A stretch of DNA of 37,358 bases. Origin: a virus. The stretch lies in the UHGV virus genome UHGV-0063828. The stretch is one strand, 5' to 3'. Positions 14,258-28,862 of the stretch are shown one piece after another. The position numbers and the translations under genes are program-made. The stretch's first letter is position 1. Every line of letters begins with the position of its first letter. The notes below the pieces were generated by a model. It saw only the letters and a program-made list of their open reading frames with translations, ran no database searches and was not told the DNA's origin.

Positions 14258-15091
14258 ATGAATATTACACAAGATAACTTAGACATTTTCACGGGGTCGC
14301 ATGTTGAAGTCTCCGTGTCTACTATGGTGGATAACCAGCCGGACTTTTTCGATCCTGCATTTAGTCCTATCGAGAACATCGCAGCATTCCCGACGATAAC
14401 CGAATCTACAGATATCCAGACGTTAGAAGAGTATGATCAGGACGCTACGGGTAAACTTGCTGGCTATCGTAAACTGGAACCGACAACACTCACGTTAAAC
14501 CGTGTTCTGGATGACGAACATCAAGCAATGTTGATGAAAGCGGTAGAGGATAAAACACCTTTACGCTTCCGTATGTTCTATGTTGTGAACTCTGGCTATA
14601 GTGCTGCTAACACTGGTTACTATGTCATCTATGATGCTTACGTCACATCACATAAAACCCGTGGTAGTGATAACAAAGCTGTAACACTGGAATTTAAACT
14701 TGAACCAGATGGCGGGATTCTAGCAAGGGGTATAGCGACCGAGGGAAAAATTCTGCGACAAGGTGATTTTGGTATTGGTGCTGGTGTACATCCATTCACT
14801 GGTCCGATTGATAGTGAAGCATTAGCCGGAAACCGTTTCGTAACTTATCAGGGATCGAGCGCATCTAATCCATTTAGTGCTGATACTTCACTAATTCACG
14901 TTCAACCTAATGAAGATGGTGGATGGCAATTAACTTGCACCGCTTCCGGCGCACCACGTTTACGAGTTCGCACAGTCCAGAAAGACGGTAATTCGGGATG
15001 GGTGAAAGTGTATTCCACAGAAGAAAAACCGACACCAGCCGAGATTGAAGCCGTTTCTATCCATGACCGGATCGACTTCGGGGAATACTGA
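14258..15091 (+). CDS. Tail- or fibre-associated structural protein (277 aa)
   Basis: AAGGGG SD; C-terminal EEKPTPAEIEAVS motif also present inside the downstream tail fibre (GDKPTPAEIGAYS); ordinary codon usage argues against it being the major tail protein. Confidence 0.5.
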   Translation: MNITQDNLDIFTGSHVEVSVSTMVDNQPDFFDPAFSPIENIAAFPTITESTDIQTLEEYDQDATGKLAGYRKLEPTTLTLNRVLDDEHQAMLMKAVEDKTPLRFRMFYVVNSGYSAANTGYYVIYDAYVTSHKTRGSDNKAVTLEFKLEPDGGILARGIATEGKILRQGDFGIGAGVHPFTGPIDSEALAGNRFVTYQGSSASNPFSADTSLIHVQPNEDGGWQLTCTASGAPRLRVRTVQKDGNSGWVKVYSTEEKPTPAEIEAVSIHDRIDFGEY

Positions 15092-15164: not shown

Positions 15165-18100
15165 ATGCAGTCGATCCAATTTAAACGAACAAATGTTTCT
15201 GGCAAAAAACCAACGCCGGAACAATTACAGGTCGGTGAGGTAGCAATCAACCTTAAAGACCATGTTATTTTTACCAAAGACCGAGATCATGAAGTAGTTC
15301 AAATCTCTGTTTCTCCTGAAACTCACGCGGCACTAGAATCTAAAGTTGATGCTAACAAACAAGAACTGGATAGCACAATTGCAGTAAATGACCGCAATAT
15401 TCACGCTAAAGTAGATGAAATTAAACAAACTACTGATGCAACCATCGCAGCAAATCACGCAGAAATTAACAATAAAGTTGATGTAATTAAACGCGAAACC
15501 GACGCGACAATCGAGGCCAATAAAAATAAAGCTGCTTCCGATCTTGCTGGTGTTAAAGCTGAATTGTCGGATACCATCAACGCTAATAAAAATGCGGCTG
15601 CTGTAGCAACTCAGGAACTGGACACCCGCATCAATAAAAAAGTTGATGATATTAAATCCCGTACCGATGCAACCATCGCAAGCAATGACAAAGCAATCAA
15701 TGACAAAGTTGATTTGATTAAGGCAGAAACTGACCGCACTATCGCAGCAAATAAAGTCTATGCGGAAAATCAGTTAACTGACACCTACAATAACCTTACT
15801 GGTGTGATTGCAGCCAATAAGCAAGAGGCAGCGGATAACGTCGCGGCATTAACCCGTGATGTTGAAGCCAAAAATACCGCAATTCATAGCAAAGTTGACA
15901 ATAACAAGTCTTACACTGATTCTGAATTGGCACGTTTAGAAAGCCGTATTGATGCAGCCGATGGATCGAGTGATGGCAAGTACATCAAAAAGCACGTAAA
16001 CACTTACACTGATGGCTATTTGCTATCTAAGACCGCAAACTATTTTGATGATCCGGGTGCGCGTAATCTTGATTATTTTGGTGCATTCCGCATGAATGAC
16101 CTGGCGGGTCATATTGCAATGATCTTGCATGTTCCGCATCCATCTGGTGTTAATCATGCTCGTGGCTTTGAGTTCACTTATGGGTCCAATCCACATGCTA
16201 CTGTAAGAACATACGGCTATGATGAATTGGGTCATTTGGCATATTCTCACCGCATGTATCATGAAGGCGATAAACCAACTCCGGCTGAAATTGGCGCATA
16301 TTCGAAAGCAGAAATTGACCGGATGTTCCAGAAGACCATCAACTTTGGTGTAGAAACTGGATGGTTTAAAATTGCTACCGCCTTTATTCCGCAAAATGAT
16401 GGACGTAGCTTGAAAATTAGATTGATTGGTGGAAATGGGTGGAACGTAGGCCAAACTGGACAATGTAATATTATTGAACTTGTTATAAGGACTAGCAACG
16501 GTTCGCCTAAAGGAATTAACTTTGTTGCGTATCATCATGTTTCTGGTTACGAGAATCAATTTTGTGCCATTAATACAAGTGATGACACTTATGATATCTA
16601 TGCATATTACTTCGAATTTACTAATATGGTAATGGCTGAATATCAAGCGTCTACCGGTGTTAATTTAACTGTACTTGATCGACCTGAATATGTAGGCGAA
16701 AAACCTGTAGCTGATCATATCTATGATGCATATACAATACACTCCTTTAACAGTTTCAGTAACCGTGGAACGTTAAATTTTGCTGGAAACCATCAAGGTC
16801 AATATGATATTGAGCATTTGAACGAACAACCGACAAATGCTAAGAAAATGCTGCGTCGCTTCCGTAGTTCTGCTCCTGCCACTATCTGGCACGAAAGTGT
16901 TGATGACCAAAATTATCGTCTTGCTACTGGATATAGCGATGTAAACCCACAATTATTGCTTTCTGCTGTAACCGGGTTACATGTCAAGAGATTAACGTTG
17001 GATGGTGGTGTCACTGGAAATTCTGGTATTGATATTCGTCGAGGACCAAACGAATCAAGCCATTTTAATTTTATGGATTATCGCACTGGTCAAGATGTTC
17101 GTAATGGCTGGTTTGGCTTCGGTGATGGTCAGACCAAAGATTTTATTTGGTGGAACGATAACGGTCAAAACTCGATAAACTTGATTGAAAACGGTGAATT
17201 GCATATTACTGGCGGTAAAGGCCAGAAAATTGTAATGAATAGCGAAGTTGCATTATCTGAAAATGCTCGTTTGGCTGTCAAAGGCGGTAACTATGGCTTA
17301 ATTTTTAGAAATGATGGATCTGACTTCCATATTCTCACCACAGGTCTCGGTGATTCCTTTGGACCGTGGAATACTCGTAGACCATTCAGCTATAATTTTG
17401 CGGATGGTGGATTGGATCTAGGTGGTACTGAAACCGCTCGTTGTTTGCACCTGGGAATTGATGGTAGCACTCGTCTCGAAGACAACCTTTTATTTAAATC
17501 TGGTTCTCGTCAATCTATGGACTATATGGAACTCGTCCATTGGGGTAACAGTAATACAGGACGCAACAACGTTTTGAGTATGCGGGATTCCAAAGGATTT
17601 TTAGCCGAATTTGAACGCACCGGAAACAATAGCATTAAAACTAGATTCTTTGGTGAAACCTTCACTGACGGTACATTATACCTAAATCAGATGAATAATA
17701 GCTCTGAACGATTCTCTATCAACAATTGGGGAAATTCAGAAGTTGGACGCGCGGCAGTAATGGAAATCGGTGATTCCAAAGGTTATCACTTCTATACGGA
17801 ACGTAGAACAGATAACAGTTTGGCGTTTGATGTTGCTGGCGCTTTTACTGTGCATGGACCTAACGGAATAACCATCAAAAACTCAGCGGGTGCACGCCAT
17901 ATCTGGTTTAGAGATGATAGCGATGCAGAAAAGGCTGTTATCTGGGCTACAGATGATGGTCTTTTACATATTCGCAATAACTACGGTGGACATTTTAGTC
18001 ATCACTTCCAGGGTGCAATGATTAAAGTGGGAGAGCGTGTTCCTTATGCCGCAGATCAAGGACTTATCCGTGGTGAGGTTTCTGGTGGTGCATATGTTGC

Positions 18101-18683
18101 ATGGAGAGACCGACCTGCTGGTTTGTTGGTTGACTGTCAACAAAGCGTTGATAGTGCTCATGCTATTTGGAAAGCGGTTGATTGGGGGCGTAACTACATC
18201 GCTGCTATGGACGTTCATTGTCCCGGTGATAGTAATAATACTGCGGCAGCGGTTCTTCATGTTCAGGGTGCTGATTATCAATTCCATGCAAGTGGAGAAT
18301 TTCATGCCACTGGTAACGGAAACTTTAACGATGTTTATATTCGTTCCGATCGTCGTCTGAAAATTAATGTTGAAGACTACGAAGAAAATGCGGTAGATAA
18401 GGTAAATAAACTCAAAGTTAAAACCTACGATAAAGTTAAATCACTTTCTGATCGCGAAGTCATCGCACATGAGATTGGTATTATCGCACAGGATTTACAA
18501 GAGGTATTACCGGAAGCTGTTAAAACCGCAAAAATTGGTGGTCTTGATAACCCAGAAGAAATTTTAACAATTTCAAACTCCGCAGTGAACGCGCTTTTAA
18601 TTAAAGCGGTCCAAGAAATGAGCGAAGAAAATAAACTTCTTCGTGAACGTCTTGCTGCTATTGAGGCTAAATTATTTGGTTAA
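15165..18683 (+). CDS. Side tail fibre with C-terminal intramolecular chaperone (peptidase S74-like) domain
   Basis: N-terminal periodic KVDxIKxxTDATIAxN repeats (4 copies); last ~112 aa SDRRLKINVEDYEENAVDK...LAAIEAKL resembles the self-cleaving chaperone of T5 L-shaped fibre and endosialidases. Confidence 0.85.
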   Translation: MQSIQFKRTNVSGKKPTPEQLQVGEVAINLKDHVIFTKDRDHEVVQISVSPETHAALESKVDANKQELDSTIAVNDRNIHAKVDEIKQTTDATIAANHAEINNKVDVIKRETDATIEANKNKAASDLAGVKAELSDTINANKNAAAVATQELDTRINKKVDDIKSRTDATIASNDKAINDKVDLIKAETDRTIAANKVYAENQLTDTYNNLTGVIAANKQEAADNVAALTRDVEAKNTAIHSKVDNNKSYTDSELARLESRIDAADGSSDGKYIKKHVNTYTDGYLLSKTANYFDDPGARNLDYFGAFRMNDLAGHIAMILHVPHPSGVNHARGFEFTYGSNPHATVRTYGYDELGHLAYSHRMYHEGDKPTPAEIGAYSKAEIDRMFQKTINFGVETGWFKIATAFIPQNDGRSLKIRLIGGNGWNVGQTGQCNIIELVIRTSNGSPKGINFVAYHHVSGYENQFCAINTSDDTYDIYAYYFEFTNMVMAEYQASTGVNLTVLDRPEYVGEKPVADHIYDAYTIHSFNSFSNRGTLNFAGNHQGQYDIEHLNEQPTNAKKMLRRFRSSAPATIWHESVDDQNYRLATGYSDVNPQLLLSAVTGLHVKRLTLDGGVTGNSGIDIRRGPNESSHFNFMDYRTGQDVRNGWFGFGDGQTKDFIWWNDNGQNSINLIENGELHITGGKGQKIVMNSEVALSENARLAVKGGNYGLIFRNDGSDFHILTTGLGDSFGPWNTRRPFSYNFADGGLDLGGTETARCLHLGIDGSTRLEDNLLFKSGSRQSMDYMELVHWGNSNTGRNNVLSMRDSKGFLAEFERTGNNSIKTRFFGETFTDGTLYLNQMNNSSERFSINNWGNSEVGRAAVMEIGDSKGYHFYTERRTDNSLAFDVAGAFTVHGPNGITIKNSAGARHIWFRDDSDAEKAVIWATDDGLLHIRNNYGGHFSHHFQGAMIKVGERVPYAADQGLIRGEVSGGAYVAWRDRPAGLLVDCQQSVDSAHAIWKAVDWGRNYIAAMDVHCPGDSNNTAAAVLHVQGADYQFHASGEFHATGNGNFNDVYIRSDRRLKINVEDYEENAVDKVNKLKVKTYDKVKSLSDREVIAHEIGIIAQDLQEVLPEAVKTAKIGGLDNPEEILTISNSAVNALLIKAVQEMSEENKLLRERLAAIEAKLFG

Positions 18684-18722
18684 TTAAAATAGCGGGGAGA
18701 AATCCCCGCTAAGGATTCTTAT

Positions 18723-19019
18723 ATGGGATATTGGGTAAGTAGTGAAATTAATACTAAAATCGATGCTTTAAAATGGCATGTATTTGATATTCCTAACGGC
18801 TATGGTACTGCTCGTGCTGGTGTCGCTGTAATGCGTCATAATGCTGGTGGTGGGTGGTCTGATGCACATATTAACGTAGATGGTTTGACCGTTGCTCGTC
18901 GTCGTGGTGGGACCAATTGGGGATCTACTATAAATTCGTTTGTTCCTGCTGGCTGCACCGTCTCCTTTGGTTTAGGGGGTGAAGGTGGTGTTGAATATTT
19001 TAAATTCATGGAGTTTTAA
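18723..19019 (+). CDS. Small Gly/Trp-rich protein, paralog 1 of 3 (FDIPNG family)
   Basis: AAGGA SD; shares W..FDIPNGW and C-terminal T-V-S-F..G...YFKF pattern with the next two ORFs. Confidence 0.6.
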   Translation: MGYWVSSEINTKIDALKWHVFDIPNGYGTARAGVAVMRHNAGGGWSDAHINVDGLTVARRRGGTNWGSTINSFVPAGCTVSFGLGGEGGVEYFKFMEF

Positions 19020-19021
19020 TT

Positions 19022-19327
19022 ATGGCTGGATGGATAAATCAAAGAATGTCAAACGCTATTAGTATTTGGGCTAATGGTGGATATTTTGATATCCCCAACG
19101 GCTGGGTTACTGATTCATGCGGAATTGTTTTTGCTCATATGGAAGCCATTAACGGTGCTGGTGATCTTGATTCTGAATTGGCTGTAAATGGATTGATTGA
19201 ATCAGGTCATCATGCTGGTGATGCTGGGAGTTGGGGCGCTAGTTCTTTAGTTGGCGCTGGTGCTACCGTTAGCTTTACATTGGGTAAAGGTAGTTTGCAT
19301 TATTTCAAATTCAGGAGAATGCACTAA
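19022..19327 (+). CDS. Small Gly/Trp-rich protein, paralog 2 of 3
   Basis: Starts 3 nt after paralog 1 stop; conserved FDIPNGW core. Confidence 0.6.
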   Translation: MAGWINQRMSNAISIWANGGYFDIPNGWVTDSCGIVFAHMEAINGAGDLDSELAVNGLIESGHHAGDAGSWGASSLVGAGATVSFTLGKGSLHYFKFRRMH

Positions 19328-19629
19328 TGGCATTTTGGGTAGATGGCGCTTTGGGGACTAGGGCGGGTAAAGCAAATCAAGGATGGTTTGATATTCCTAA
19401 CGGTTGGACAGCCGACGCTTTCGGGACTATTTCATTCTGTGTTCATTCTTCCGGTGGTGGCGGCGGTGACTCTGAATTGTTTATTCATGGTTTTTGTGTT
19501 TCTGGAAGCCATAAGGGTCATGATTGGGGACAGATCCATTCTTGTATTGCACCGCAAGGAGCAGTAATTACAGTTAGCACAAATAGGGGGATCGCTCATC
19601 TTCGTTATAGACGTTTGAGCAATCGCTAA
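19327..19629 (+). CDS. Small Gly/Trp-rich protein, paralog 3 of 3
   Basis: TAATG stop/start overlap with paralog 2; AGGAGA SD; conserved FDIPNGW core. Confidence 0.6.
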   Translation: MAFWVDGALGTRAGKANQGWFDIPNGWTADAFGTISFCVHSSGGGGGDSELFIHGFCVSGSHKGHDWGQIHSCIAPQGAVITVSTNRGIAHLRYRRLSNR

Positions 19630-19683: not shown

Positions 19684-20154
19684 ATGACTACTAAACTTGA
19701 TATTTTTTCTGGTGGCCTCGTTGGTCTGTTTCTGCAAGAAGACGTAAGCAATAAAGACCTTGATGCTGAAACCTATCTGGAAATCCCAGAATGTGCGGCT
19801 TTCCCGGAAACTGGTGTAGAACGTTCTACTATCGATGTTCCTAACTTCGGTGGTCCGTATAACCGTAAGCTGGTTGGTCGTATGTCTGTACCGGATATCG
19901 AACTTTCGATCAACTACATGCCGGGTAACGAAGTACACGAAAAACTGATTAAAGCAACCGAAGACGGTAAGCGCGTACAGCTTAAAATTGCTTACTACAT
20001 CGACGCTACGAAAAAATCTGGTGTGCACATCGCTTATAACGGCTTCCTGTCTAAAACTACCATGACTGGTGGTGAGGATGCTGTAGTAGGCCGTACCTTC
20101 ACCTTTGTAGTAGATGGTGCTCCGGTTAAACAAGCTGTTTTCCAGAAAGTCTAA
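19684..20154 (+). CDS. Major tail (tube) protein
   Basis: 156 aa, strongly optimised codons like the capsid domain; precedes chaperone pair and tape measure; strong tetraloop terminator immediately downstream. Confidence 0.65.
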   Translation: MTTKLDIFSGGLVGLFLQEDVSNKDLDAETYLEIPECAAFPETGVERSTIDVPNFGGPYNRKLVGRMSVPDIELSINYMPGNEVHEKLIKATEDGKRVQLKIAYYIDATKKSGVHIAYNGFLSKTTMTGGEDAVVGRTFTFVVDGAPVKQAVFQKV

Positions 20155-20236: not shown

Positions 20237-20545
20237 ATGAATATTAATGAAATGTTAGCCGCACTCTCTCCGAAACGTGAATCTTTGACCATCGGTGGAT
20301 TTACTTTCTATGCTCGCCCTATGTCAGTAAAAGAATTTAACGAACATGTTTTCAATACCGATAAAGAAGATCGTGATGAACGTTCTATTCTTCGTTGTAT
20401 TGAAGATGAAGACGGTAAGCCGGTATTTGAATCTATGGAACAAGTTAAGGCACTGTATACTAACGTCCGCAGTGAATTAATCGGTTTGGTTGCTCAAGCA
20501 TCATTGATGCAAGATCCGGCAGTAATTGAAAACGAGGTAAAGTGA
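20237..20545 (+). CDS. Tail assembly chaperone (gpG-like position)
   Basis: AAGAGGAA SD; ~100 aa acidic protein between tail tube and tape measure. Confidence 0.6.
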   Translation: MNINEMLAALSPKRESLTIGGFTFYARPMSVKEFNEHVFNTDKEDRDERSILRCIEDEDGKPVFESMEQVKALYTNVRSELIGLVAQASLMQDPAVIENEVK

Positions 20546-20916
20546 ACCCGCTTCTGAATTTCTACTTTCGGCAAATGATGCGATCGGGGCTTAGTAAAGA
20601 TGAAATGGATAATATGCCAATCACTCTGTTTTGGAAATTATACATTTTCGACACCTACTTAGAACCACAAAGCCCCGCGTTTCATGATATGCAGAATGCG
20701 ATGTTGCAATATTCCATGTATATGACGTCGCAAGGAATGACACGCGAAACTGCACGTAAACTCAAGCCTAGCCAATTCCAATTAATTAGAGAAGAAAAAC
20801 TCTTTAAAACTAAAGAAGAACTGGAAGAAATTGCACGCAAGAAAGAAGAAGAACGTAAAGCGGCAATGATGAACATGTTCGATCCATCTTTGCTTGAGAA
20901 ACTCAGAAGCGGTTAA
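20542..20916 (+). CDS. Second tail assembly chaperone (gpT-like position)
   Basis: GTG start overlapping upstream stop (GTGA) with GAGG SD; in -1 frame relative to the upstream gene. Confidence 0.55.
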   Translation: MNPLLNFYFRQMMRSGLSKDEMDNMPITLFWKLYIFDTYLEPQSPAFHDMQNAMLQYSMYMTSQGMTRETARKLKPSQFQLIREEKLFKTKEELEEIARKKEEERKAAMMNMFDPSLLEKLRSG

Positions 20917-24666: not shown

Positions 24667-25086
24667 ATGCTAAAAACTAGGCTTATCACTGATTACATCA
24701 ATTCTTTAATAGGTCAGGAGTTCGTTCAAGGCGAGAATGATTGCAATCTAATTGCATGTAAGATCATCGATATTCTCGCTGGCACTGACCTATATAATTC
24801 TCTTTATAAAAAATATTCAACTAAAGAAGAAGGCTTGAAAATCTGCAAAGAATTAAGCGGATACACAAACATCCTTCAACCAATTAAGAAACATTTCAAA
24901 TTAGTCACTGATGATTTACAGGACGGCGACTTACTGGTCACAGCCCACAAATTAGGAAACCGCAAATATTATTCCGTAGTTCCTCATTATTCCGGTTATG
25001 GCCTCGTTGAAGAAGATGGTATCTGGATGACCATTCCTGTTTCAGACATTGACTATGAACAAGTTTATAGATTCGGGGGTGAATAA
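24667..25086 (+). CDS. Tail-tip protein with NlpC/P60-like Cys/His motif (gpK-like position)
   Basis: Start placed at ATG 24667 with GGAGGT SD; ENDCNL...DGDLLVTAH...PHY suggests a Cys-His peptidase fold. Confidence 0.5.
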   Translation: MLKTRLITDYINSLIGQEFVQGENDCNLIACKIIDILAGTDLYNSLYKKYSTKEEGLKICKELSGYTNILQPIKKHFKLVTDDLQDGDLLVTAHKLGNRKYYSVVPHYSGYGLVEEDGIWMTIPVSDIDYEQVYRFGGE

Positions 25087-28000
25087 TGGGATTTGAAGTA
25101 TTGGTAGGCGCGGTTATTGCTGGTGCGTCTGCTGGGATGGCTGCTGCTGCAACATTTTCTGTTATGACCGCAGTCGCTATCGGTATGGCTGCTGGTGCAA
25201 TGACCTTGATCGCTTCCACTGTAGGCGCACCAAAAACACCTAAAGTACAAAGCCCAGATAATGCGGTGACACTAGGAACATCAAACGATCCTAAAACAGT
25301 ATTACCCGTTCTTTTCGGTACTACCCGAACTGGTGCAATCTGCGTTTACAAAGCAATTTCACAGCGTGAAAATAACAAACTGGTACAAATTTTTGCTATT
25401 TCAGAAGGTGAGATCGATCACTTTAAAGCACTGCACATCGATAATAAAAACGTTCTCATTAGTCAGAATATGACAATTCGTGATGGTATTCTCGATAAAG
25501 GAAACATTAAAGACGAATACCGCAAAGTGTTAGAAGTCGAGTTTCGCACTGGTAAAAATCCTAACACTGCATTGGATCTGGCTAAACATCATTTGGGCGC
25601 TGATTGGGATGATCGGTATCAGGGTAACGGCATTGCGACCATGTGTATTGTTTTACGTCGTGATGACAAATCTCTTGCTGCTGGTGTTGATATTCTCCAG
25701 CCAAATAGCCAGGTAGCAGTAGACGTTTGCGGCCTTAAAATCCGTAACCTTGAAACCAATGCTATTGAGGCTAGCACTAACGGCGTGGATCAGATTTTCC
25801 ACTACCTAACAAATGAAAAATATGGCTTATCCGTACCAATTGAAAACATTAACGTTGATTCATTCCTGAAAGTACGTAAACAAGTACGCCAGATGGATCT
25901 ACATTCAAACGGTGCATGTGATCCGAACGCCAGCTTTAAAGAGAACTTGACTAATCTTATGCAGACTTTCGGCGGGGTGATGTTCGAATCCTTTGGACGT
26001 ATTACGCTGAAACTGGATGCTCCTGATATTGTTAAGCATACCTTCAATGAAGACAATATCATGATGGGTAAGGTATCACTGAAAACAGGTGGCACTAACG
26101 GTTATTTCAATACCATTAACGCGATGTATCAAGAACCATCAATTGACTATTCAGAGCAAATGCTACGTTATCCGGCTGATGCTGAAAACGATGCTACTGT
26201 TCGCGCAGATGGTCGAATTATTGCTAAGGATGTAGAATATCGTTTCGTTAAGTCTAAAGATCAGATTGATAAACTCGCGAGCATTGAGCGAAATAAATCT
26301 CGTATCACTCAGGTTATCAGCTTTATGACTACTGACGCATTCACTGCCGAAGTTTGGGATGTTATTAGCGTTACCTATGATGAATTGAAACTGAATAATT
26401 CACTTTGGCGCATTACTGCAATTGATCGTTCTATTGATTCTGGTATTGCTGGGATGATGACTATCACCGCTACAGAATATAATTCTCAGGTTTATACTGA
26501 CCTGAACTATGCGGCAACTCCAGACAATAGACCAAGTGGTTTACCGGATTCAATGACAGTACAGAAACCGACTAATTTCAGAATTAAGGCAACTGGTGAG
26601 ACAATCCACGGTAAGAACGTTACTTTAACATGGGATGCACCGGAAGATTTTAACCGCTACGGCTTCCAGATTGATTATCGTGTGAGTGGATCACCTAACT
26701 GGATTAAGCTGGGACAGACTTCACAGCAAATTTTCAATATCAATGCACTGACAAAAGGTCGCTCCTACGATTACCGAGTTTGTGCTTTCGGTATTATTGC
26801 TCGTTCCGAATGGGTGGAACTGGTTAACCAGAATCCAGAAGTTACCTATGAATTGCCGACTCCGGTTATTCGAATCAAAAATCAGGGTAGCACGCCTGGT
26901 ACTTTCGAAGGCAATGATCTGATTATCGAATGGGAAAATCAGCAAGCCTTAGATGTGGTTATCAACGGTGAAACTAACAAGTTTAGTGACCTGTTTGAAG
27001 CCTACATTATCAAGGTAACTAACAAGGCTGGTAAGTCTATTCAGTACCGTACCCGCGATCCTGAATCATGGACCTATACGCTTGATATGAACCAGTTTAA
27101 CGGCCTTTCCCGTGAATTGACGGTAGAAGTATCAGTCAAGGGCTATAACAACTCAGAGAGCGCCCCAGCGCGTTTAGTGGCTATTAACCCACAGCATAAG
27201 CCAATGAAAGGTTTTAGTGCGCGTGGTGGCTTTAATACTGCGTTTGTTAGCTGGGCGGATGACGTAGAACATGACTATGCAGGGTCAATCATCCAGTATG
27301 CAACCGATAACACTTTCTCAGATGCAAGGGCAGTAAGCACGAATAGTGTTAGCCATACTTCCTTTGATTTGGCTGACGGTGATTATTATATCCGTGGTGC
27401 TCACTATGATATTTTCGGTATGGATGATGCTGTTTGGTCTGAACCGTATTTCATGCAAATGAAATCTACCATTAGTTGGGACGATCAGGACAAAGAAGCA
27501 CTGGAAGACCTGATTGGTTTACAAGATCGCTTAGATGAAACCATCGCGGATGCTATTGCTCAAGCTGGCGCTAATGCCGATGCTAAAATTGATGCAATGC
27601 ATAAGCAAATCACTACCGAAACAGGGCAGACGGTCCAAGCCTCAGCCAATACCTTAAAGAGTCTGATTGCTACCAGCGAGCAAGCTAGCTCCACTAAGAT
27701 TGATCAGGTTAAAGCTGAACTGAAAGGCGATATCACCAAAGAAGTTAGCGCATCCGCTACTACCCTGAAACAAGCAATTGCTACCAGTGAGGCAGCAAGC
27801 GCAAGTAAGATTGATCAAGTTCGGGTAGAAATGGATGGCAAGATTGCTGGTGTGAATCAGGAAGCAGATGTAAAAATCGATGCTTTGAAGGGAACCATTA
27901 ACAGCAAATATAATCTGGCGGTTAATGCAGATGGTCGCGTGGCTGGTATTCACATGAGCGCAACCAACGATCCGGCGCAACCGACGAGAATCATCTTTAC

Positions 28001-28862
28001 GGCTGATAAAATCGCGGTAGCTCCACAGAACGGATCGGAAGTATGCCCGTTTGGCATCGAAGATAACAAAGTTTATCTCGATAATGCGATGATTCGTAAT
28101 GCTGCAATTGGCACAGCCCAGATTAGTGATGCTAGTATCACCACGGCTAAGATCGGCACAGCCCAGATTAACGGCGCTCACATCCAACACGCACAGATCG
28201 GAACAGGTCATATCATTGATGGCTCTATCGATAATGCTAAAATTGGTAACTATATCCAGTCTTATAACTGGAATGGTAACGATGGATGGTATATCGGCAA
28301 AGATGGCACTTGTCATTTTAGACACGCTAATATTCGTGGTCATTTGGTGGCTGATTCCGGAGAAATGAACAACGTAACGATTAATTCAAGTTGCCGCATT
28401 TTGGGTATGCTTGATGCTAATCAGGTGCGTGGTGACTTCGTGAAAGCTATTGGTCGTCGATTCCCACATTGGGACGAAAACCCATCATTGGGCTACCCCG
28501 GTTATCCGCAAGGTACAATCACTGTTCGAATTGAAGATGATCACCCGTTTGATCGTCAGATTATCGTTCCGGCTATTAGCTTTGGTGGTCTTAATGCGCG
28601 TGAAGGCTCGAATAACAATACTTACTATGATAACTGTCGCTTGATTGTTCGCAAGAACGGTGCTGAATTATATAACCGTGCATATGGTAGACAGACTGGA
28701 TTGTATAGTGCTGTTATTGATATGCCAGCCGGACACGGACCAGTTACGCTAACTTTTGAAGTAAGTTCAAGCGCAATCAACAACTGGACTCCCAGCACAT
28801 GGATCAGCGATCTTTCTGTAATTGTTACTAAGAAAGCCGCGACTGGTATTTCTGTTTCTTAA
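25086..28862 (+). CDS. Central tail fibre / host specificity protein: gpI-like N-terminal segment fused to gpJ-like body
   Basis: 1258 aa; N-terminal Gly/Ala-rich hydrophobic segment resembles lambda gpI C-terminus as recalled; fibronectin-III-like repeats (LTWDAPEDF...YDYRVCAFG); C-terminus DDHPFDRQIIVP...ATGISVS resembles lambda J as recalled. Confidence 0.85.
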   Translation: MGFEVLVGAVIAGASAGMAAAATFSVMTAVAIGMAAGAMTLIASTVGAPKTPKVQSPDNAVTLGTSNDPKTVLPVLFGTTRTGAICVYKAISQRENNKLVQIFAISEGEIDHFKALHIDNKNVLISQNMTIRDGILDKGNIKDEYRKVLEVEFRTGKNPNTALDLAKHHLGADWDDRYQGNGIATMCIVLRRDDKSLAAGVDILQPNSQVAVDVCGLKIRNLETNAIEASTNGVDQIFHYLTNEKYGLSVPIENINVDSFLKVRKQVRQMDLHSNGACDPNASFKENLTNLMQTFGGVMFESFGRITLKLDAPDIVKHTFNEDNIMMGKVSLKTGGTNGYFNTINAMYQEPSIDYSEQMLRYPADAENDATVRADGRIIAKDVEYRFVKSKDQIDKLASIERNKSRITQVISFMTTDAFTAEVWDVISVTYDELKLNNSLWRITAIDRSIDSGIAGMMTITATEYNSQVYTDLNYAATPDNRPSGLPDSMTVQKPTNFRIKATGETIHGKNVTLTWDAPEDFNRYGFQIDYRVSGSPNWIKLGQTSQQIFNINALTKGRSYDYRVCAFGIIARSEWVELVNQNPEVTYELPTPVIRIKNQGSTPGTFEGNDLIIEWENQQALDVVINGETNKFSDLFEAYIIKVTNKAGKSIQYRTRDPESWTYTLDMNQFNGLSRELTVEVSVKGYNNSESAPARLVAINPQHKPMKGFSARGGFNTAFVSWADDVEHDYAGSIIQYATDNTFSDARAVSTNSVSHTSFDLADGDYYIRGAHYDIFGMDDAVWSEPYFMQMKSTISWDDQDKEALEDLIGLQDRLDETIADAIAQAGANADAKIDAMHKQITTETGQTVQASANTLKSLIATSEQASSTKIDQVKAELKGDITKEVSASATTLKQAIATSEAASASKIDQVRVEMDGKIAGVNQEADVKIDALKGTINSKYNLAVNADGRVAGIHMSATNDPAQPTRIIFTADKIAVAPQNGSEVCPFGIEDNKVYLDNAMIRNAAIGTAQISDASITTAKIGTAQINGAHIQHAQIGTGHIIDGSIDNAKIGNYIQSYNWNGNDGWYIGKDGTCHFRHANIRGHLVADSGEMNNVTINSSCRILGMLDANQVRGDFVKAIGRRFPHWDENPSLGYPGYPQGTITVRIEDDHPFDRQIIVPAISFGGLNAREGSNNNTYYDNCRLIVRKNGAELYNRAYGRQTGLYSAVIDMPAGHGPVTLTFEVSSSAINNWTPSTWISDLSVIVTKKAATGISVS

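Follow-up and report, generated by a model that had tools for sequence, protein, structure and literature searches.

Three coupled paralogous genes behind a gp37-type tail fibre as a candidate three-chain counterpart of gp38

The side-fibre locus and its three small genes

The DNA analyzed here (hereafter called the window; 37,358 nt, virus genome UHGV-0063828) is a lambdoid siphovirus prophage, with genes for a gpA-type terminase, a portal of the lambda family, a protease-capsid fusion, a tail tube, G/T-like chaperones, and a tape measure. Relatives of this prophage were found in 57 of 5426 complete E. coli genomes. Downstream of its side tail-fibre gene lie three small genes, all on the plus strand, which encode proteins of 98 aa (paralog 1, 18723–19019), 101 aa (paralog 2, 19022–19327), and 100 aa (paralog 3, 19327–19629). 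The second gene starts 2 nt past the stop codon of the first (TAA-tt-ATG), a spacing initially given as 3 nt, and the start codon of the third overlaps the stop codon of the second by one base (TAATG), as had been noted. A Shine–Dalgarno-like motif precedes each gene (AAGGA, GGAG, and AGGAG for genes 1, 2, and 3, respectively).

Pairwise BLASTP comparisons (E = 2e-12 for proteins 1 and 2, 7e-9 for proteins 1 and 3, and 3e-13 for proteins 2 and 3) bore out the original prediction that these are tandem paralogs of about 100 aa. The residues common to the three are W4, F21-D-I-P-N-G26, G33, D47, G54, and G77. The FDIPNGW motif is present in proteins 2 and 3 but reads FDIPNGY in protein 1, and the C-terminal strand ends in YFKF in proteins 1 and 2 but in HLRY in protein 3. 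When orthologs were compared, dN/dS ranged from 0.04 to 0.39 in 32 of 33 comparisons covering all three genes, the last one not being computable because dS was saturated. The three open reading frames are thus genuine coding genes maintained under purifying selection. In these comparisons, paralog 3 was well conserved and paralog 2 gave values of 0.07–0.39, its orthologs in Salmonella and T7-like phages having an N-terminal extension; in E. coli, paralog 1 varied most between alleles. The allelic variation of the trio is modest when compared with the hypervariable loops of gp38.

The fibre gene itself (15165–18683, plus strand, 1172 aa) matched PHROG 1699 ("long tail fiber protein distal subunit", E = 1.5e-135) and the Pfam families Gp34_trimer and Peptidase_S74. 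From about position 16029 on, it is 84–90% identical at the nucleotide level to gp37 of the T4-like Krischvirus phages, and this portion is a T-even gp37-type distal long-tail-fibre segment. Its C-terminal region (18330–18683, plus strand) corresponds to a self-cleaving Peptidase_S74 intramolecular chaperone (PF13884, E = 1.5e-14, aa 1061–1120) that begins with the motif DVYIRSDRRLK at aa 1056, confirming that the fibre carries a chaperone of its own. Removal of this region would expose a mature tip ending in GNGNFN, the sequence of the window before DVYIRSD being ...YQFHASGEFHATGNGNFN. The three small proteins presumably dock on this 1172-aa fibre.

Between the fibre gene and gene 1, a terminator-like scan detected a G+C-rich hairpin (TAGCGGGGAGAAATCCCCGCTA, 18690–18711, no strand assigned), which is kept in the Krischvirus phages, including KFS-EC, and whose homolog in G2248 is annotated as a putative terminator. 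The hairpin has the form of a classical terminator on the minus strand, and a clean T-run is missing on the plus strand. It could act in attenuation or stabilize the RNA.

Two tail-tube-like genes (14258–15091 and 19684–20154) flank the inserted side-fibre module. The product of the first of them (277 aa) joins a tail-tube-like N-terminal half to an additional domain at the C-terminus that faintly matches a tail-fibre PHROG, and a length of 276–277 aa is kept in its E. coli and Salmonella relatives; this protein may be the side-fibre anchor. The tail assembly chaperone pair located further downstream (20237–20916, Phage_TAC_13-like and then Phage_tail_T-like) has a 4-nt overlap, the usual place of a programmed −1 frameshift of the G/GT type. 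The window also encodes a central gpJ-type tail-tip protein (25086–28862, 1258 aa) with a C-terminal lambda J-type receptor-binding domain (Ig_GpJ_C, E = 2e-35), which gives the prophage another, independent means of binding receptors. By analogy with Stf in lambda, the side fibre is probably accessory. In related prophages, homing-endonuclease-type genes were found beside the fibre/tail module (L007 2235–3479, L005 11702–12007, and L022 1792–2832), including those for a NUMOD3 protein, a DUF723/CapR protein, and a GIY-YIG nuclease encoded immediately before the fibre gene, and such genes might promote module exchange.

Distribution and fixed organization of the trio

The family is very small and unannotated. 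Searches of Pfam, PHROGs, NCBIfam, and PADLOC returned no meaningful match for any of the three proteins, with nothing in Pfam at E ≤ 1. A word-indexed search of 5.8 billion proteins matched 35 clusters, of which all the named ones are "hypothetical protein" of E. coli, Shigella, or Salmonella, and an exhaustive profile search of 1.84 billion representative proteins gave 21 matches, about 15 of them proteins of ~100 aa. The remaining five or six were giant proteins (1118–3591 aa, with up to 19 matching stretches), which we read as summed weak repeat matches on inspection of one of them, P0051. A PDB profile match to the designed "Pizza" beta-propeller proteins (E = 4e-6) was likewise judged spurious, because it is built only from repeated motifs of ~20 residues (PNGxxxDxxG) worth about 6 bits each. 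At the genome level, the full trio was present in 22 of the 5426 complete E. coli genomes, and two others carried a remnant of gene 3 alone. Among 50,697 phage records, the trio was intact in three (G37-3, G2248, and UPWr_E1) and decayed in one (KFS-EC). No description of the trio genes was found in the literature on Krischvirus and gp38, on UPWr_E1, or on heterotrimeric fibres.

Seventeen extracted loci, from E. coli prophages, Salmonella prophages, and Krischvirus phages, contain three complete reading frames, and all 17 have one ortholog of each paralog in the order 1-2-3; the third gene of the Salmonella loci was present but had not been called. The E. coli and Krischvirus loci retain both the 2-nt gap and the 1-nt overlap. 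Two Salmonella loci (L021 and L023) have a gap of 1–2 nt and a 1-nt overlap, and a third (L022) has a wider spacing. Contigs of T7-like podoviruses carry a divergent trio of 98, 122, and 100 aa, with roughly 20–45% identity to the window proteins, in the same order and again with a 2-nt gap and a 1-nt overlap. This trio lies between a gene 17.5-type holin and a gp17-type fibre that combines a Phage_T7_tail N-terminus with a gp37-like tip and an S74 domain. The paralogs diverged long before the family spread. As a separate observation, a frameshift splits paralog 2 in an IMG/VR prophage (L013 6300–6603), and the trio thus decays occasionally in prophages too.

Copy-number variation in related phages, which the original prediction had named as a check, was looked for and was seen neither in the 17 loci nor in the 22 E. 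coli genomes nor in the full T7-like contigs. Since the trio is fixed and its coupling is kept across this divergence, it can be argued that the three proteins form one obligate multi-subunit unit; copies acting independently are unlikely, because redundant or independent copies would be expected to vary in number. The suggestion that a diversified triplet broadens the receptor range is thus not supported by a set of genes whose number, order, and coupling do not change. The same data bear on the possibility that the three proteins are alternative single-chain adhesins, each docking alone, which would give mixed specificities on each virion. Each paralog does have its own predicted N-terminal Trp helix and its own variable surface, and gp38 itself is a monomer on a trimeric tip. 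However, gain and loss of copies would be expected for such adhesins and none was seen across the E. coli, Salmonella, Krischvirus, and T7-like contexts, the tight coupling has been kept at roughly 20–45% protein identity to the window proteins, and the good conservation of paralog 3 is not what a specificity determinant would be likely to show. We consider this explanation quite improbable, and favor the reading of the trio as a single unit.

The gp38 position and exchange between trio and gp38

Behind a fibre of this kind, most T-even phages encode the gp38 adhesin. Krischvirus phages G37-3, G2248, and UPWr_E1 instead carry the trio after gp37 and before the Dc5/holin genes. The same slot is occupied by the gp38 adhesin of ~260 aa in Krischvirus phiS, Skers, and kvi and in Tequatrovirus RB3, JE01, and HY03, and gp38 also directly follows a gp37-type fibre in the prophage of E. 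coli TO6. With a gp37-type fibre and its self-cleaving S74 domain immediately ahead of it, the trio of the window is thus in a gp38-type position. No gp38 homolog was detected by tblastn in the complete G37-3 genome or in the window, with positive controls working, and the trio proteins are not recognizable as gp38 homologs themselves, as an hhalign comparison of the trio family profile with the gp38 profile gave a probability of 0.35%.

Two genomes illustrate how the two alternatives replace each other. KFS-EC has an ectopic gp38 on the minus strand (positions 153141–153917 of the KFS-EC record, L032 1142–1918), about 55 kb from gp37, among early-region genes and between the orthologs of G37-3 _00079 and _00080, where G37-3 has a 61-nt intergenic gap. 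Next to its gp37, a decayed trio (L002 4120–4540) consists of a deletion chimera of gene 1 (1–89) and gene 3 with a frameshift, and KFS-EC thus lives without an intact trio. Published remarks that gp38 sits away from gp37 in some Krischvirus phages are probably explained by this ectopic gp38. In the E. coli TO6 sister prophage, a segment 96% identical to Krischvirus kvi (L006 5700–6860) took the place of genes 1 and 2 and of the initial third of gene 3; this segment extends from the end of gp37 through gp38 to the ninth codon of Dc5. The recombination left a chimeric Dc5::gene3 open reading frame of 70 aa, in which MVYNIIIGA is followed by the last ~60 residues of paralog 3, and is a case in which a virulent T4-like phage and a temperate siphovirus exchanged DNA directly. 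In the genomes compared, the trio and gp38 are mutually exclusive, and the G37-3, KFS-EC, and TO6 cases point to their functional equivalence.

The similarity between the window and Krischvirus G37-3 (96% over the trio) ends about 16 nt past the stop codon of gene 3, and the mobile module therefore consists of the distal fibre and the trio. The trio moves with the fibre tip between three phage morphotypes. Small unannotated proteins encoded at a recombination hotspot and present in prophages might also be hitch-hiking cargo unrelated to the fibre, with a role in superinfection exclusion, receptor masking, anti-defence, or another moron function, the first two of which had been raised in the original prediction. 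Yet a receptor-masking factor would need a signal peptide, a lipobox, or a transmembrane segment, and these features of Llp/Cor-type lipoproteins are absent from the three proteins, whose N-termini are polar and predicted to be helical (maximal 19-residue Kyte–Doolittle means of 0.68–0.90). In addition, PADLOC gave no match, the late structural operons of strictly virulent T4-like and T7-like phages contain the trio, the module boundary 16 nt past gene 3 implies movement with the fibre tip, and the trio alternates with gp38. We therefore regard a cargo function, including superinfection exclusion and receptor masking, as very improbable.

The mature tip and chaperone domain of the window fibre are nearly identical to those of gp37 in RB3, JE01, and TO6, which bear gp38, and the G2248-type tip, quite different from that of the window, is also paired with gp38 in HY03. 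Strict co-variation with the trio is seen in a single fibre segment, the ~20 aa at the end of the chaperone domain that is cleaved off: the sequence MSEENKLLRERLAAIEAKLFG always accompanies the trio, whereas the gp38-linked fibres end in ...IKELKTPLFTKIARKISKYFKF. This ~20-aa end resembles the tail of the S74-bearing T7-like fibre. The co-variation may be explained more simply by genetic linkage at the recombination junction. Proteins 1 and 2 have YFKF in common with the C-terminal end of gp38-type gp37, a match of just four residues that was taken as a chance resemblance.

A link to the end of the chaperone domain would also be in line with transient assembly factors, which would fold, trim, or mature the fibre tip without being part of the virion or binding a receptor. 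The gene right behind a fibre gene often encodes a chaperone, as for T4 gp38 and Tfa, and the trio shares this position directly after the fibre gene with Tfa (of lambda, P2, and Mu), T4 gp38, and gp57A; the replacement of gp38 would fit as well if gp38 also stabilizes the tip. Against this, near-identical fibre tips occur without the trio, the fibre already has its S74 intramolecular chaperone, and three distinct chaperones in fixed stoichiometry are hard to rationalize for a homotrimer. Fibres with an intramolecular chaperone need no separate folding factor. Tail fibre assembly proteins are encoded by one gene, in contrast to the three genes of the trio and its partner fibre with a built-in chaperone, and no similarity to the Tfa or T4 gp38 families was found in Pfam, PHROGs, or NCBIfam. 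The Tfa of Mu remains on the fibre tip.

Predicted fold and a possible three-chain fibre tip

Proteins 1 and 3 were modelled with AlphaFold2 (pLDDT 82.2 and 80.5, respectively), and the two models agree: an N-terminal helix (residues ~3–15) is followed by a confident jelly roll of 7–8 strands. A Foldseek search against predicted viral structures retrieved tail-fibre C-terminal domains and C1q-domain proteins. The best fold matches were carbohydrate-binding modules, C1q/TNF heads, and phage tail-fibre C-terminal domains, the carbohydrate-binding modules fitting equally well as the C1q/TNF heads. The models thus contain a compact jelly roll matching gC1q and TNF domains, and a Pfam C1q or TNF signature is absent from the three proteins. 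According to these models, the fold class of the trio would be that of trimeric fibre-end "knobs" and lectin-like modules, and not that of known fibre chaperones. The earlier suggestion of a lectin-like or adhesin-tip domain fits both this predicted jelly roll and the gp38 slot.

The predicted fold, being that of binding or knob domains, is a further argument against transient assembly factors, which we hold to be unlikely, although the N-terminal helix was modelled with low confidence (pLDDT 54–59). The original prediction had considered the three proteins unlikely to be classical fibre chaperones on the ground that the fibre has its own; the conclusion probably stands, but the argument does not, since gp38 partners such fibres (PMC9569957).

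The tryptophan W4, at the start of the predicted helix, is invariant in 27 of 27 enterobacterial family members. The N-termini read MGYW-VSSEINTK in protein 1, MAGW-INQRMSNA in protein 2, and MAFW-VDGALGTR in protein 3. Elsewhere, position 4 is M in the T7-like protein 3, N in one variant of the T7-like protein 1, and L or Y in other remote members. The helices of gp38 read, for comparison, PGW-IGSSAVNE, QRW-MSQAAGQL, and PCW-MSQFAGRS, and W9, W22, and W37 are invariant in the gp38 alignment. These residues would correspond to the three Trp described for gp38 of S16, which is attached through three conserved Trp, one at the apex of each attachment-domain helix, that sit in three symmetry-equivalent pockets on the base of gp37 (PMC6851490). 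A self-cleaving domain is present in all gp37 fibres of the T2/S16/RB49 type, and these fibres nevertheless depend on gp38, which is added once cleavage has taken place; in RB49 and most T-even relatives, the removal of the chaperone domain by gp37 itself is followed by the docking of a gp38 monomer at the tip (PMC9569957).

Because W4 starts each N-terminal helix and is invariant in the 27 enterobacterial members, we propose that three chains may do the job of one gp38 chain, with three chains carrying one Trp helix each being the equivalent of one chain with three helices. Folding of the fibre trimer would be assisted by the S74 chaperone domain at its C-terminus, which would then cleave itself off near DVYIRSD and leave a three-fold symmetric tip. 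Proteins 1, 2, and 3, supplied in equal amounts by translational coupling, would assemble with one copy each into a pseudo-symmetric heterotrimer of C1q/TNF-like jelly rolls. This heterotrimer would dock on the tip via its three N-terminal helices, each bearing a Trp or another bulky hydrophobic residue at position 4, and these three residues would fill the three equivalent hydrophobic pockets that take the Trp-tipped helices of gp38 in S16. The exposed face of the cap, which would differ between chains and between alleles, would bind the host receptor. Against the single-chain adhesins considered above, one Trp helix would fill just one of the three pockets.

Our preferred reading, on which the evidence leaves us about evenly divided, is that the trio forms a previously undescribed cap or adhesin at the fibre tip, built from the three chains at 1:1:1, and that it stands in functionally for gp38. 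The proposed heterotrimer draws indirect support from the fixed number of genes and their translational coupling. Weighing against this reading are the residues other than Trp at position 4 in remote members, the low confidence of the modelled N-terminal helix, the lack of sequence homology to gp38, the modest allelic variation, the survival of KFS-EC with a broken trio, and the chance that the ~20-aa co-variation reflects linkage. The more detailed model is put forward tentatively, as possible rather than probable: a free-standing heterotrimer of three C1q/TNF-like chains would plug the three-fold tip after cleavage of the chaperone, in place of the monomeric gp38, and would be a third way to arm the long tail fibre in some T-even-like, T7-like, and lambdoid phages, with an intrinsically asymmetric receptor-binding head. 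We infer the presence of the trio in the virion, its 1:1:1 stoichiometry, its docking through Trp plugs, and its binding to a receptor.

In position and presumed function, the closest counterpart of the trio is the gp38 adhesin of the T2/T6/S16/RB49 type (Pfam GP38, structure 6F45). Both are encoded immediately after gp37, in an identical slot, with a gp37 partner whose S74 domain is cleaved off; they replace each other on the same fibre tips, and the trio may attach, as gp38 does, via Trp-tipped N-terminal helices. They share no sequence or profile similarity, and their architectures differ. Whereas gp38 is one monomer of 260 aa, with three attachment helices, a beta-helix, and a polyglycine-II sandwich, the trio consists of three chains of ~100 aa, each predicted to have one helix and a jelly roll. 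The glycine content of the three proteins is 16–17%, and the polyglycine-II sandwich, long glycine-rich motifs, and hypervariable segments that characterize gp38 are missing from them.

In its predicted fold, the trio resembles the jelly-roll heads of the C1q/TNF superfamily (the C1q A/B/C heterotrimer, lymphotoxin a1b2, BclA, and phage fibre knobs). The proposed heterotrimer would parallel the three-chain A/B/C head of C1q. The trio proteins have a short helix and stand free, without fusion to a collagen or fibre stalk. A fibre end made of three different chains has also been suggested for the tripartite tail proteins of virophage DSLV2, which are proposed to be heterotrimeric fibre proteins (PMC12724248); those proteins are gp37-like shaft and tip proteins, whereas the trio would form small jelly-roll caps. 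The trio would be a separately encoded fibre-tip partner, whose three-chain architecture would be new if confirmed.

If the proposal is true, these genes would be of consequence for the way in which phages recognize their hosts. Genome-based receptor predictors that use gp37 and gp38 features would miss the trio, which would also provide a compact module for the engineering of host range. By capping a homotrimeric fibre with a heterotrimer, the phage would resolve the symmetry mismatch otherwise than gp38 does. In T4, the tip of gp37 itself binds the receptor, and in T2, S16, and RB49, a gp38 monomer does; a three-gene tip free of gp38 would, if true, be a third solution for T-even long tail fibres, portable between the fibres of myo-, sipho-, and podoviruses, and could account for host recognition by the gp38-less Krischvirus phages G37-3, G2248, and UPWr_E1.
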